Of a stretch of DNA of 64,000 nt, positions 22,969-64,000 are shown piece by piece. Under the pieces are notes generated by a model. It was not told the DNA's origin. It did no database searches and saw only the letters and a list, made by a program, of their open reading frames with translations. Positions within the stretch are counted from its first letter, which is position 1. The number at the start of each line of letters is the position of its first letter. Position numbers and translations under genes: made by a program. The stretch is taken from assembly GCF_058153355.1 (NCBI RefSeq), contig NZ_CM177019.1, one strand, 5' to 3'.

Positions 22969-22991
22969 TAAATGGTATTTAAAATGCAAAT
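22969..22991 (+). promoter_or_regulatory. NsrR-type operator upstream of yeaR-yoaG
   Basis: TAAATGGTATTTAAAATGCAAAT resembles the NsrR consensus AAGATGCATTTAAAATGCATCTT; yeaR-yoaG is a known NsrR-repressed operon. Confidence 0.45.
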
Positions 22992-23058
22992 TATCAGGCG
23001 TACCCTGAAACGGCTGAAATAAACTGTTTTCAGCACATTCATCGAAGGAGGGAAAAGG

Positions 23059-23418
23059 ATGCTGCAAATCCCACAGAATTATATTCATACGCGCTCAACG
23101 CCTTTCTGGAATAAACAAACTGCGCCTGCCGGAATATTCGAACGTCATCTTGATAAAGGAACGCGCCCGGGGGTTTACCCACGCCTTTCCGTTATGCATG
23201 GGGCGGTCAAATATCTCGGCTACGCTGATGAACACAGTGCAGAGCCTGATCAGGTGATCCTTATCGAAGCGGGGCAGTTTGCGGTGTTTCCGCCAGAAAA
23301 GTGGCACAACATAGAAACCATGACTGACGATACTTATTTCAACATTGACTTCTTCGTTGCTCCTGAAGTCCTGATGGAAGGCGCGCAACAACGGAAAGTC
23401 ATTCATAACGGGAAATGA
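23059..23418 (+). CDS. yeaR: DUF1971-family protein, nitrate/NO-inducible
   Basis: 119-aa ORF MLQIPQNYIHTRSTPFWNKQTAPAGIFERHLDKGTRPGVYPRLSVMHGAVKYLGY...; synteny. Confidence 0.9.
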   Translation: MLQIPQNYIHTRSTPFWNKQTAPAGIFERHLDKGTRPGVYPRLSVMHGAVKYLGYADEHSAEPDQVILIEAGQFAVFPPEKWHNIETMTDDTYFNIDFFVAPEVLMEGAQQRKVIHNGK

Positions 23419-29463: not shown

Positions 29464-30954
29464 TCATGAACGGCTGTTTTTGTTCTGCTTATTGACATAT
29501 AAACGCTCATCGGAAGCTTTATACGCATCATGTAACGTATCGTTTTCTTTCATCGCATAAATACCGGAAGAAAAGCCGATCTCTTTTTGCGGCGCGATAT
29601 GTTGCAGACGTTTTTCGATACGTTCAGGCAGTTGTGCTGCAATTTGCGGCGTCGAATCGACAAGAATGATGCAGAATTCATCGCCACCGAGTCGGATGGC
29701 ATAATCACTTTTACGAATCGACTGTTTAATCGCCTGAGCTAATAACGTAATCGCTAAATCTCCTTCCTGATGACCGAGCGTGTCATTTATTTGCTTTAAC
29801 TTGTCCATGTCAATTGCAATAAACATCACCGAAGAACCAGATTGCACCAGTTTTTGCAACCGCTGCTCCAGTTCAGGGGTTAATATTTTGCGATTATACA
29901 GTCCGGTCATCGCATCACTAATATTTTCTCGCGACACGTTTTGGTATAAACGGAAGTGCATCCGGACCATATTCAGCAAAATTAACGCCGTCAAAATCCA
30001 GAACAGAACGCTTTTCCACGAAGACGTGATAAAGTAAAGAATATCAATGGATAACGAGACACGAATACCGCCCGGTAAGTCATGGACGTAACTGACATAC
30101 TGGAACAGATTATCTTCGCTCTGGTTGATGATAATGTCGCGCCCTGAATCTGTATCAGTTAGCGTGACATTGAGAAAACGCCAGAGGAGAGGGCGGTCAT
30201 GAGTGTAAAAGATATTCCGCAGATTGTTTTTGTTAATATCCAGCAGCACAATCCCTTTTAGCTGCCCTGCGACATATACCGGCGTCAGCAAACTCATCAC
30301 GTTCTGTTTAGTACGCTGATCCTGGTAAATGCTCGATAATACGGTACGCCCGGTAAATACCTTTTCAATATCTTTGCGATCGATGCCAATACTTCCTGAC
30401 TGCAGGAAGGACCAGTTATTCATCGCAAAGTACTCAACATTAACCGGCTCATAAAAATAGACATAGCGGTCATTGAGATCGAGATAATAGTGAAATTTCT
30501 CTTCGGCCATTCCAAGACCTGAACCGTAATCATCCTGGTGGCGGTTGCCTTCCACTGCCTGATCAAAAGCGGGTAATAGTGCTGCAGCTTCCACAATTGT
30601 GTCGCAGTCAGTGGATGCGGTTTGTAGTGTGCCGCGTAAGCCCGGGTATTTATGGGCAGTCAGGTTTAAGCCATGGGTATTATTGGCAGACTCAAAAGCC
30701 TCGCAGATGGCGCGCCGCTGTTCTGGCGACACTTCCGACTGCTCAGCAGCGAGAGCGCGCATCACATGCGCGGCAATACTCTGATTCTGATACTTATCAT
30801 AAAGAAAGGAGGAATCTGCTCTCTGCACGATATAGCGCAGATAGGCACTCATTGCTCTGTCGCTGGCGACAAGTTCAAAAATAAGGAAGGAAGATGTCAG
30901 CACAATGACACTTGCGGCGATAAAATGCCGGAGCATTCTATGGTGCAATTTCAT
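29464..30954 (-). CDS. dgcJ: diguanylate cyclase (membrane-anchored, periplasmic sensor + GGDEF)
   Basis: ORF 29464-31134; start at ATG 30952-30954 (MKLHHRMLRHFIAASVIVL...) giving 496 aa; intact GGDEF (RLGGDEFCIIL). Confidence 0.88.
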   Translation of the reverse strand: MKLHHRMLRHFIAASVIVLTSSFLIFELVASDRAMSAYLRYIVQRADSSFLYDKYQNQSIAAHVMRALAAEQSEVSPEQRRAICEAFESANNTHGLNLTAHKYPGLRGTLQTASTDCDTIVEAAALLPAFDQAVEGNRHQDDYGSGLGMAEEKFHYYLDLNDRYVYFYEPVNVEYFAMNNWSFLQSGSIGIDRKDIEKVFTGRTVLSSIYQDQRTKQNVMSLLTPVYVAGQLKGIVLLDINKNNLRNIFYTHDRPLLWRFLNVTLTDTDSGRDIIINQSEDNLFQYVSYVHDLPGGIRVSLSIDILYFITSSWKSVLFWILTALILLNMVRMHFRLYQNVSRENISDAMTGLYNRKILTPELEQRLQKLVQSGSSVMFIAIDMDKLKQINDTLGHQEGDLAITLLAQAIKQSIRKSDYAIRLGGDEFCIILVDSTPQIAAQLPERIEKRLQHIAPQKEIGFSSGIYAMKENDTLHDAYKASDERLYVNKQNKNSRS

Positions 30955-31134
30955 GATAAATGGCACTCCTTCGGTTAGTGAAACGAGAAAACCAGATAAA
31001 GTTCGATTGCGGCCTGGCACAGGGGCGCTAATTATACTCATCTCTGCGCCGCTGGGGAGGGGAAATTTAGGGGTAATAGTAATAAATTGTATGCAAAAGC
31101 CACGCAAAAAGCATGGCTCTGAATATTTTTGCAC

Positions 31135-32610
31135 TTAAATATGATGAATAATCACTTTGTTGCCCCCCTCGCTTTTCGCTTCGCGTAAGGCTTTATCTGC
31201 TTCCGTCATGACAAGCGAGATATTACGCGTGTCACCCGTTGAAAAAACCGTGCCAATACTGATGGTCATTTGTTCAGGAACATCATATCTGTTACTAAAA
31301 CCGGTCAGGAGTTCGACATTTTTACGCATACGTTCCGCAATGATTTTTGCCTGGGCACTATTGAGTTCGGTAAATAGCAAGCCAAACACCTCACCCTCCA
31401 GTCGCGCTAAAATATCATCGGGGCGGATGCTTTGCTGGATAATATCGACAATTGAAACCAGCACTTTATCACCCACACGATGTCCCCATTGGGCATTGAT
31501 GCGCTTGAACTGATTAATATCAACCAGCATGACACAAAAGTCCTTAACAACAGGTCGCGACAATAATGACTCTACGCTGTTGAAAAAGTAGCGCCGATTA
31601 TAAATATTGGTCAGTACATCATGAACTGCCAGTTTGCTGGAGAGTTGCAGTTCCTGAAAAATGTTATAAATCAGAAAAGACACAACAAACAGTTTACTGG
31701 AAACTTCAATCCCGCGACTGATATACCAGATGGTGTAATTATACTCATCCAGAGTCAGTAGAAGTAAGTTGCAGCATAGCGATGCCAGACATAATAATGC
31801 TATTAACGGCCATAGTTCGCTGGCTAATCGTGTACGCATGATAATAAAGAACAGTAAAAATGCCCACAAACAAACCAATATTTTTGTATAGTTGATTCCC
31901 CAGGTCGCAGTATGGTTGTCCGGACAGTAATCGACGACATACAAAGAATAGTCAGCGTTATAACTGCTCAGATTGTGTGCCAGAAGGGGGAAAACTAAAA
32001 AAGGAATCAGCGCCAGCAACAGAATGCCAGTTTTTTTCTTATTGTTGTCAAGGATGTTGTCTTTCCCATAACAAAAGAGCGCCAGCGAGGTTAAACAAAT
32101 GAAACTGAGTTGGCGGAAAATATAGAAAATAGAAACATCATTCGACTTTGTCTGGATCAGTGTACTGCCGTTGATTGGTTTATGGATAATTACAATGGTT
32201 TCAACTAAATAGATAAGGCCACTTAAAAATGCAAGGCTTAAAATGAGTGTTGGTAAAATTTGTTTGTTAGTGAAATACTTCATTAACATGAAAAGAAAAA
32301 TGACGGCGTTAAGGAAAAACAAAGCCACAACAACCATCAGGTAATTCATCTGTGGAATGAGTTTTACATTCGTGTTTTCGTTATATAAGGTGGTGATGCA
32401 AAATAAAATTAACGTCAGCAATAAGCTGAAAATAAAAAAGCCTTGAGCTTTTAATTTTTGTGTACCCATAGAAACCATAAAAAGGAGAGCAATGTGAGTG
32501 CTGGATTTTATTGATGGCAGAGATATATGGTTTTGACCAGGATCAATTTTCGTTGACGATAAAAAATAATTAAAGAATAACCCCAGGGAAATACGTGTTG
32601 ACCGAATCAT
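31135..32610 (-). CDS. dgcI: GGDEF-domain protein with degenerate active-site motif (EGEVF)
   Basis: 491-aa ORF, multi-TM N-terminus plus GGDEF domain in which the GG(D/E)EF motif reads EGEVF (ARLEGEVFGLLF); paralog of the adjacent dgcJ. Confidence 0.88.
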   Translation of the reverse strand: MIRSTRISLGLFFNYFLSSTKIDPGQNHISLPSIKSSTHIALLFMVSMGTQKLKAQGFFIFSLLLTLILFCITTLYNENTNVKLIPQMNYLMVVVALFFLNAVIFLFMLMKYFTNKQILPTLILSLAFLSGLIYLVETIVIIHKPINGSTLIQTKSNDVSIFYIFRQLSFICLTSLALFCYGKDNILDNNKKKTGILLLALIPFLVFPLLAHNLSSYNADYSLYVVDYCPDNHTATWGINYTKILVCLWAFLLFFIIMRTRLASELWPLIALLCLASLCCNLLLLTLDEYNYTIWYISRGIEVSSKLFVVSFLIYNIFQELQLSSKLAVHDVLTNIYNRRYFFNSVESLLSRPVVKDFCVMLVDINQFKRINAQWGHRVGDKVLVSIVDIIQQSIRPDDILARLEGEVFGLLFTELNSAQAKIIAERMRKNVELLTGFSNRYDVPEQMTISIGTVFSTGDTRNISLVMTEADKALREAKSEGGNKVIIHHI

Positions 32611-62701: not shown

Positions 62702-63508
62702 TTAGCGGCGGAAGGTCGCCCACACAGGCGCGTGATCGGACGGTTTTTCCATGCTGCGGATTTCATAGTCGATGCCGGTTTCTACGCAACAGTCTGCCAG
62801 CGGTTGGCTGGCGAGCAGCAGGTCGATACGCAGACCACGGTTATCGTCAAAACCTTTTGAGCGGTAATCAAACCATGAGAAACGATCTGCTGTTTCCGGA
62901 TTCGCATGGCGGAAGGTATCCACCAGCCCCCAACTTATCAGCCTGTCCATCCATTCACGTTCTTCAGGCAGGAAAGAACATTTACCAGTACGCAGCCAGC
63001 GTTTGCGGTTCTCTTCGCCAATGCCGATATCCAGGTCGGTGGGGCTGATATTCATATCGCCCATAATCAGCACCGGATTTTCGCGCTTAAGTTCGGTTTC
63101 GAGATAGTTTTGCAGGTTCTGATAAAACTGCGCTTTCGCCGGGAATTTAATCGGATGGTCGCGACTTTCGCCCTGTGGGAAGTAACCGTTGATCACGGTG
63201 ACATTACCCAGCGGCGAGGGGATTTCCGCCATAATAATTCGCCGTTGTGCCTCTTCGCCGTCGTCAGGGAAGCCGCGACGCACAGCAATCGGCGTCTCTT
63301 TGGTCAACAATGCCACGCCGTAATGGCCTTTCTGCCCGTGATAAAACACGTTGTAGCCGAGCTTTGCCACCTCTTCGAGCGGAAACATATCGTCATGAAC
63401 TTTTGTCTCCTGCAGGCCAATCACATCTGGTTGGTGCTTTTCGACGATGGCTTCAAGCTGGTGAGGTCTGGCGCGCAGGCCGTTGATATTAAAAGAGACA
63501 AATTTCAT
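62702..63508 (-). CDS. xthA: exodeoxyribonuclease III (AP endonuclease)
   Basis: ORF 62702-63691; start at ATG 63506-63508 ([47 protein letters not shown]...) giving 268 aa, matching E. coli XthA. Confidence 0.96.
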
Positions 63509-63865
63509 AGTCGCTGCCATTAATTCAGATAAAGAATGCGTGGATGGTAGCAGAATTTCGCTTTGCTTACCGCCTGTTGTTAAGTGATTTGATCGATGGT
63601 TGTTAATGATGTCAACGATGGCGCAAAAAATGCCCGCTTTTGGTGCGCGCTGCGTCAGAATGGCGCAGTAATTTCCAGTAAATTTCGTCAATGATCACAA
63701 TTCCAGAATTATATTTTACTTCTGCATAACATTGCGTTTTTTATTCTTTTTATTCACCTACATCGCAAACGTATTCACTTTATATGCACTTTAAATGCAT
63801 ATGGTTTGGTTATAACTCCTTGATTTCCAGTTAGCCACCGCGGTTTATGCACTTTTATCACTGGC

Positions 63866-63882
63866 TGGCACGAACCCTGCAA
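63866..63882 (+). promoter_or_regulatory. sigma-54 (-24/-12) promoter of astC
   Basis: TGGCACGAACCCTGCAA fits TGGCAC-N5-TTGCA (one mismatch in the -12 element), about 70 bp upstream of the astC ATG; the ast operon is known to have a sigma-54 promoter. Confidence 0.55.
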
Positions 63883-63953
63883 TCTACATTTACAGCGCAA
63901 ACATTACTTATTATTAACATATAAATAACTAATTATTTACTGTAGAGGTCGCT

Positions 63954-64000
63954 ATGTCTCAGCCAATTACGCGTGAAAACTTTGATGAATGGATGATACC
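63954..64000 (+). CDS. astC: succinylornithine transaminase, N-terminal 15 codons (gene runs off the window end)
   Basis: ATG at 63954 after SD GAGGTC; MSQPITRENFDEWMIP matches the AstC N-terminus; position next to xthA as in K-12. Confidence 0.8.
   Translation, partial: MSQPITRENFDEWMI

Follow-up and report, generated by a model that had tools for sequence, protein, structure and literature searches.

The spacer between the divergent genes xthA and astC contains a 23-bp inverted repeat, which raises the question of which regulator, if any, recognizes it. The window (the whole stretch of DNA that was analysed, 64,000 nucleotides) is Escherichia coli DNA, and its spacer was matched in 5424 of 5426 complete genomes, with gapless 98% identity to K-12 MG1655. 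The repeat, TATATGCACTTTAAATGCATATG (positions 63781-63803), is an 11-1-11 palindrome with its centre at 63792, about -100 from the sigma-54 start of astC (~63892). An earlier note on this DNA had suggested that it might be an NsrR operator representing an unrecognised nitrosative-stress input, with an ArgR- or NtrC-type site as the fallback. Based on its bases and their setting, the palindrome is most likely the centre of the already described ArgR region of this locus, a known kind of site.

Sequence and genomic context of the palindrome

The palindrome is located between the following features.

62702-63508, minus strand: xthA coding sequence, the divergent neighbour, with its ATG at 63508
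63866-63881, plus strand: astC sigma-54 promoter TGGCACGAACCCTGCA, with the -24 GG at 63867-8 and the -12 GC at 63879-80, conserved in orthologues
63955-64000, plus strand: start of the astC coding sequence, with its ATG at 63955

On re-reading of positions 63781-63803, the sequence, coordinates and perfect 7-bp arms given in the earlier note proved exact, the arms being ATATGCA (63782-88) and TGCATAT (63796-802). A repeat search returned arms of 10 nt (63782-91 and 63793-802), which are 90% complementary and separated by 1 nt. With 9 of 11 complementary arm positions and a 1-nt centre, the palindrome has an NsrR-type architecture, and a manual count against the NsrR operator AAGATGCATTT-A-AAATGCATCTT gave 8/11 and 9/11 matches in the two halves, reproducing the claimed similarity of about 17 of 22 positions. 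The claimed distances of ~65 bp to the -24 element and ~275 bp to xthA were also confirmed, the measured values being 64 bp from the end of the palindrome to the GG and 273 bp from its start to the xthA ATG.

The 23-mer is identical in K-12 (NC_000913.3, 1832134-1832156, corresponding to window positions 63803-63781) and in CFT073, and the 51 bp around the palindrome are identical in 3745 of 5423 E. coli genomes. Ten of its bases, TATGCACTTT (63783-63792), recur as an exact direct repeat at 63846-63855, which is 63 bp (3 x 21) away, and a third near-copy, TATTCACTTT, is present at 63772. No sigma-70 promoter was found at the palindrome.

Palindromes of this type are common. The window contains 17 11-1-11 palindromes with at least 9/11 complementary positions, compared to 8.8 +/- 3.9 in Markov resamples, and approximately 10% of resampled 446-bp spacers hold one; on these grounds, an argument for significance from the palindrome alone was rejected. 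The same frequencies favour a functionless chance palindrome in an AT-rich spacer, but across 33 genera-level orthologues the arms are invariant amid variable adjoining bases, their distances to other elements are fixed, and the repeat co-occurs with astC, as described below. Contradicted by these conservation data, a chance origin is scarcely credible.

Analysis of the palindrome as an NsrR operator

In strain CFT073, 27 NsrR 11-1-11 sites were identified by PatSer at lnP <= -14.28, and NsrR ChIP-seq revealed 49 promoter-associated peaks (Mehta et al. 2015, PMC5320621). From these 27 published sites, we rebuilt the NsrR position weight matrix (PWM) in four variants. The top match in the window was the yeaR site (score 16.55), which served as a positive control for the scan. 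The palindrome was second of 63,978 window positions, after the yeaR site only, and its half-sites scored 4.9 each, which is approximately the lower quartile of the published half-sites (first quartile 4.94). Nevertheless, the PWM check proposed in the earlier note went against an NsrR operator, with lnP values of -10.0 to -12.5 falling short of the published cut-off of -14.28 in all four variants. The corresponding probability of ~4e-6 per position implies about 20 such sites by chance in a 5-Mb genome.

The yeaR site itself, AAATGGTATTTAAAATGCAAATT (22970-22992), is the exact published yeaR NsrR operator (Table 4, PMC5320621). A 119-aa ORF (23059-23418) follows 67 bp downstream and, like YeaR, resembles the N-terminal domain of TehB.

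Published ChIP data were equally unfavourable. The 23-mer is identical in CFT073, where it is absent from the published list of 27 PatSer sites, and no promoter-associated ChIP-seq peak lies between 1.89 and 2.31 Mb, a range that includes the site at ~1.986 Mb (astC starts at 1,985,827). This absence is softened by the known NsrR targets yeaR and ygbA, which were also missed by the CFT073 ChIP-seq (PMC5320621). A search of about 8 million papers for NsrR and astC returned only one co-mention, in an unrelated proteomics study, and no NsrR link to astC or xthA. The CFT073 annotation (NC_004431.1) lists astA (1983576-1984610) as a pseudogene interrupted by an internal stop, and the strain used for NsrR ChIP-seq may therefore lack an active arginine succinyltransferase pathway.

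Phylogenetic footprint of the astC-xthA spacer

Scanning of XthA relatives gave 80 loci, including 33 Enterobacteriaceae loci with divergent astC and xthA. The alignment comprised 32 of these loci and the window, making 33 rows (referred to as 33 orthologues), with genera including Escherichia, Citrobacter, Enterobacter, Kosakonia, Cedecea, Kluyvera, Pluralibacter and Mangrovibacter; Pseudocitrobacter faecalis was omitted. The spacer of the latter is 903 bp long, compared to ~450 bp elsewhere, presumably due to an insertion.

Across the 33 rows, the hexamers TATkCA (63783-88) and TGmATA (63796-801), where k is G or T and m is C or A, show no or almost no variation. Variable bases of the 23-mer are the two outermost ones at either end and the seven that separate the cores, and these differ even among E. 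coli sequences. In the left core, A, T and C are invariant and G63786 is T in seven orthologues; the adjacent position 63789 is not conserved (C in 16 rows, A in 11, T in 5 and G in one). The right core (63796-63800) has invariant T, G, A and T with a C/A alternation, and reads TGAAT in 20 of 33 orthologues. Unlike the bare palindrome, this conservation marks the element as real. The pattern AT(G/T)CA-N7-TG(A/C)AT was found upstream of xthA in 30 of 32 loci with an astC neighbour versus one of 37 loci without astC, and therefore the motif belongs to astC, not to xthA.

The resemblance to NsrR operators is not conserved. None of the 33 orthologues reached the NsrR cut-off (median score 3.8), and the Spearman correlation between conservation and NsrR information content along the palindrome was -0.08 (33 rows). 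The high-information outer AA/TT of the NsrR motif are mismatched or variable in these rows, the inner TTT-n-AAA varies within E. coli, and the near-invariant T63783 and A63801 represent the base least used by NsrR (2 of 54 half-sites) and fit ARG positions. A functional NsrR operator would have holo-NsrR bound to the 11-1-11 repeat and astC and/or xthA responsive to NO, possibly in competition with ArgR. Its geometry is correct, and it shares 17 of 22 positions with the best NsrR site (ytfE). Given the sub-threshold score, the unlisted CFT073 23-mer and the lack of conserved NsrR-likeness, we consider such an operator very unlikely and do not retain the proposed nitrosative-stress input.

Proposed ARG boxes and half-sites around the palindrome

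An 18-bp symmetric PWM for the ARG box, whose consensus is wnTGAATwwwwATTCAnw, was constructed from 16 classical K-12 boxes (argA, argD, argECBH, argF, argI, argG, argR and carAB). All 16 sequences were located in NC_000913.3 at the right promoters with a spacing of 21 bp (20 bp in argR); one argD box showed a single-base difference from the classical form, and the genomic version was taken. On this scale, the known boxes score 5.7-15.7 (the 16 training boxes) or 2.6-15.1 (leave-one-out). The matrix is built on repressor-type boxes, and the operator junctions used as a scale are training data. A half-site scan (maximum 8.28) over the 33 orthologues revealed five ARG-type sites with medians of 6.5-7.7, the next-best distinct site having 3.96. 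The sites and boxes are listed below without strand, with positions relative to the astC sigma-54 start.

63721-63738: upstream ARG-like box, score 2.98, full-box median 5.08
63723-29: conserved half-site TGCATAA in the upstream ARG-like box, at -167, half-site median 6.46
63772-63778: ARG-type half-site TATTCAC, at -117, median 7.71, repeating the left arm in direct orientation 11 bp further upstream
63773-63790: proposed ARG box A, ATTCACTTTATATGCACT, centre at -110.5, its right half being the left arm of the palindrome
63784-63788: ARG half-site ATGCA (ATTCA type), left arm core, central base at -106, median 6.93
63794-63811: proposed ARG box B, AATGCATATGGTTTGGTT, only its left half ARG-like and conserved
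63796-63800: ARG half-site TGCAT (TGAAT type), right arm core, central base at -94, median 7.06
63846-63851: ARG-type half-site TATGCA, at -43, median 7.24, part of the TATGCACTTT repeat

Box A is the best ARG-box match upstream of the promoter, with a score of 6.54 at the weak end of the known boxes, and also the best conserved full-box position (median 6.24 in the 33 orthologues). Box B scores -2.5 (orthologue median -2.7); its inner TGCAT is placed at the exact 3-bp inter-box distance and its outer half is absent, the 39-bp tandem of both boxes scoring only 4.0. Reading of the palindrome as a single ARG box was rejected. An intra-box pair requires arms that are one base closer together, and the frames 63783-800 and 63784-801 accordingly reach no more than 1.1 and 1.8.

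The spacing of the half-sites is rigid. Those at -106 and -94 are 12 bp apart, which is the inter-box distance, in 30 of 30 loci, and the -94 and -43 half-sites are 51 bp apart (9 + 2 x 21, in phase) in 26 of 30 loci, so that with a phasing of ~21 bp these three half-sites are in phase in 26-30 of 30 loci. The half-sites at -117 and -106 are 11 bp apart in 27 of 27 loci and form direct repeats, a non-canonical ARG geometry. Those at -167 and -117 are 50-51 bp apart, and the -43 half-site is 18 bp from the -24 GG in nearly all loci. Position 5 of the verified ARG half-sites is A in 19 of 32 and C in 8 of 32, which is the same G/T and C/A alternation as found in the palindrome arms.

These matches suggest that the palindrome is probably the core of an ArgR site in the control of astCADBE, its arms representing the inner half-sites of the adjacent ARG boxes A and B with a 3-bp spacer. 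Against ArgR stand box B with its single ARG-like half, the weak box A and the non-canonical 11-bp direct repeat. The lack of a textbook ARG-box pair, the weak full-box scores, the 11-bp direct repeats and the half-sites 50-51 bp apart flanking an IHF consensus could also point to another DNA-binding or architectural protein (not ArgR, NsrR or NtrC), which would read the TATkCA repeats on one helix face. However, the conserved hexamers, the base alternations and the 12-bp and 9 + 42-bp spacings are those of ArgR recognition, and ArgR is the regulator documented for the astC promoter, making a different factor rather unlikely. Compared by eye, the consensus sequences of Fis (G-N13-C), Nac (ATA-N9-TAT), ArcA (TGTTA direct repeats) and Lrp do not fit the palindrome.

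A full-text literature search with the palindrome sequence in either orientation gave no match. The text of the ArgR ChIP-exo paper does not mention astC, and a search for astC in the supplements of the IPOD-HR, iModulon-motif, RegulonDB-10 and CFT073 papers returned nothing useful.

Comparison of the NsrR and ArgR models on one frame

For direct comparison, an ArgR-junction model was scored on the same 23-bp frame as the NsrR PWM. The palindrome had an ArgR-junction score of 10.9 (lnP -13.1) versus an NsrR score of 9.95 in E. coli. These values are nearly equal, and therefore the discrimination between the two regulators rests on the orthologues. Their medians were 11.3 for the ArgR junction versus 3.8 for NsrR, with the ArgR score exceeding the NsrR score in 32 of 33, and the palindrome frame was the top conserved ArgR-junction position across the whole spacer. 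Seven genuine operator junctions with 3-bp spacers had ArgR-junction scores of 11.1-14.5.

When scored with the NsrR PWM, the K-12 argI junction ATCATCCATATAAATTGAATTTT, a genuine ArgR site, reached 11.53 (lnP -13.9), which is above the astC site and close to the cut-off. Thus, the NsrR resemblance is generic to ARG-box tandems. It arises because the NsrR core ATGCA-TTTnAAA-TGCAT shares its half-sites, their orientation and the 7-bp AT-rich gap with the ARG-box junction, which has the form AT(T/G)CA-nw-nnn-wn-TG(A/C)AT; the conserved bases of the astC site, TAT(G/T)CA-N7-TG(A/C)ATA, fit this form. The inner 23 bp of tandem ARG-box operators have the NsrR 11-1-11 geometry and core, and NsrR scans will catch ArgR operators and vice versa. 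From the fallback offered in the earlier note, the ArgR part is upheld by ARG half-sites at the inter-box spacing, and the NtrC part is wrong, with no consensus match of three or fewer mismatches on the palindrome (see below).

A combined use of the site, with weak NsrR binding in competition with ArgR, would be limited to the E. coli lineage, in which both arms read ATGCAT, and appears highly improbable. If true, host arginine-derived nitric oxide would modulate bacterial arginine catabolism or exonuclease III expression.

Comparison with known operators

The classical ARG operators (argI, argF, argA, argECBH, argD, argG, carAB and argR) have the same half-sites as the astC palindrome (TGAAT/TGCAT and ATTCA/ATGCA), and share with it a 7-bp inner gap (3-bp spacer), AT-rich surroundings and half-sites that face the same side of the helix. 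With a junction score of 10.9, the palindrome is just below their range (11.1-14.5). In contrast to these operators, the outer half-sites at astC are weak or absent (box B -2.5, tandem 4.0), and additional half-sites are found at distances of 11 bp and 50-51 bp. The classical operators are repressing sites that overlap a sigma-70 promoter, whereas the putative astC site, located at -100 relative to a sigma-54 start, would serve in activation.

With the NsrR operators of ytfE, hmp and yeaR (Partridge et al. 2009; PMC5320621), the astC palindrome shares the inverted repeat with a 1-bp centre, the ATGCA...TGCAT core and an AT-rich middle. It differs from them in its sub-cut-off PWM score, its mismatched outer AA/TT and the A/T at 63783/63801, which is almost never used in NsrR sites. 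Furthermore, it is unlisted in the CFT073 ChIP-seq and PatSer data and is not conserved as an NsrR motif.

Candidate NtrC and IHF elements of the spacer

The following elements were found on the two sides of the palindrome.

63631-63647, no strand assigned: NtrC-like dyad 1, TGCCCGCTTTTGGTGCG, centre at -253, conserved
63651-63667, no strand assigned: NtrC-like dyad 2, TGCGTCAGAATGGCGCA, centre at -233, conserved
63813-63825, minus strand: exact IHF consensus AATCAAGGAGTTA (candidate site), at ~-73, between the palindrome and the promoter

A scan of the spacer for the NtrC consensus TGCACY-N5-RGTGCA with up to three mismatches found dyads 1 and 2 only and no match at 63781-63803. The TGCAC(T) sequences at 63785 and 63848 correspond to the left half of the consensus, and NtrC binds the spacer in vivo and in vitro, with a ChIP-seq interval near the promoter, at ~63860-63940 if the published coordinates refer to U00096.2. 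The palindrome could thus be read as an NtrC (NRI) enhancer or 'governor' site with TGCAC as its half-site, but its outer TGCA...TGCA spans 15 bp, not 17 bp, C63789 is not conserved, and G63786 is T in seven orthologues. Together with the negative consensus scan, this makes an NtrC site exceedingly unlikely.

Binding of NtrC and sigma-54 to the E. coli astC-xthA spacer has been published (PMC4066584; PMC8743547), and the orthologous Salmonella promoter TGGCACGAATGCTGCAAT is bound by sigma-54 (PMC3844500). The supplement of a gSELEX paper labels ATGGCGCAGTAATTTCCT, which overlaps the NtrC-like dyads, as an RpoN-type box.

In the IHF consensus, AA and TTGA are invariant in the 33 orthologues, and a constant 15 bp separates its start from the middle base of TGCAT in the right arm. 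To our knowledge, IHF has not been documented for the astC promoter.

Proposed organization of the astC control region

ArgR reportedly binds between the NtrC sites and the promoter (Kiupakis & Reitzer 2002, J Bacteriol 184:2940; Lu & Abdelal 1999, J Bacteriol 181:1934). The ArgR region described for ast in E. coli and Salmonella and the palindrome are at the same locus, at the same sigma-54, NtrC-dependent promoter, and in the same class of position, between the NtrC sites and the promoter. There is probably no difference between the two, and by its location the palindrome is most likely part of that very site. Citing these two studies, PMC3037356 describes arginine-bound ArgR as an accessory activator that acts at the NtrC-dependent sigma-54 promoter of astCADBE in both E. 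coli and Salmonella. Where two ARG boxes meet, ArgR introduces a DNA bend of 70-90 degrees (PMC4381063).

From the arrangement of these elements, we infer that ArgR occupies these exact bases and contributes to promoter activation by bending. Of the four subunits through which the arginine-bound ArgR hexamer contacts DNA, the two central ones would sit on ATGCA (-106) and TGCAT (-94). The palindrome, the ARG-type half-sites at -167, -117 and -43 and the IHF consensus at -73 may together form a bent nucleoprotein segment, which would be located between the NtrC dyads (-253 and -233) and the sigma-54 promoter. Such bending could help NtrC to contact the sigma-54 RNA polymerase and might underlie the 'superinduction' of ast that has been published as dependent on arginine and ArgR.

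The identification of the palindrome as an ArgR site has little discovery value, because the control of astCADBE by ArgR was already reported in 1999-2002. The footprint provides a base-level map of ast control, on which the sigma-54 promoter and the two NtrC dyads are joined by an exact, conserved IHF consensus and by five ARG-type half-sites with rigid spacing, and could guide mutational work on how ArgR aids a distant enhancer.

Additional observations

CRP was considered for the palindrome and rejected, since the best CRP-like match in the spacer is elsewhere (63681-63702) and is weak, with only 7 of 10 core positions matching. The block at 63693-63716, GATCACAATTCCAGAATTATATTT, shows very strong conservation and contains a TCACA half-site and an ARG/Lrp-like CAGAAT box. 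Among tandem ARG-box-like matches, the highest score in the window (13.9) was obtained at 31118-31156, with TCTGAATATTTTTGCACT (10.8) as the first box, where two minus-strand GGDEF-type ORFs (29464-31134 and 31135-32610) adjoin.
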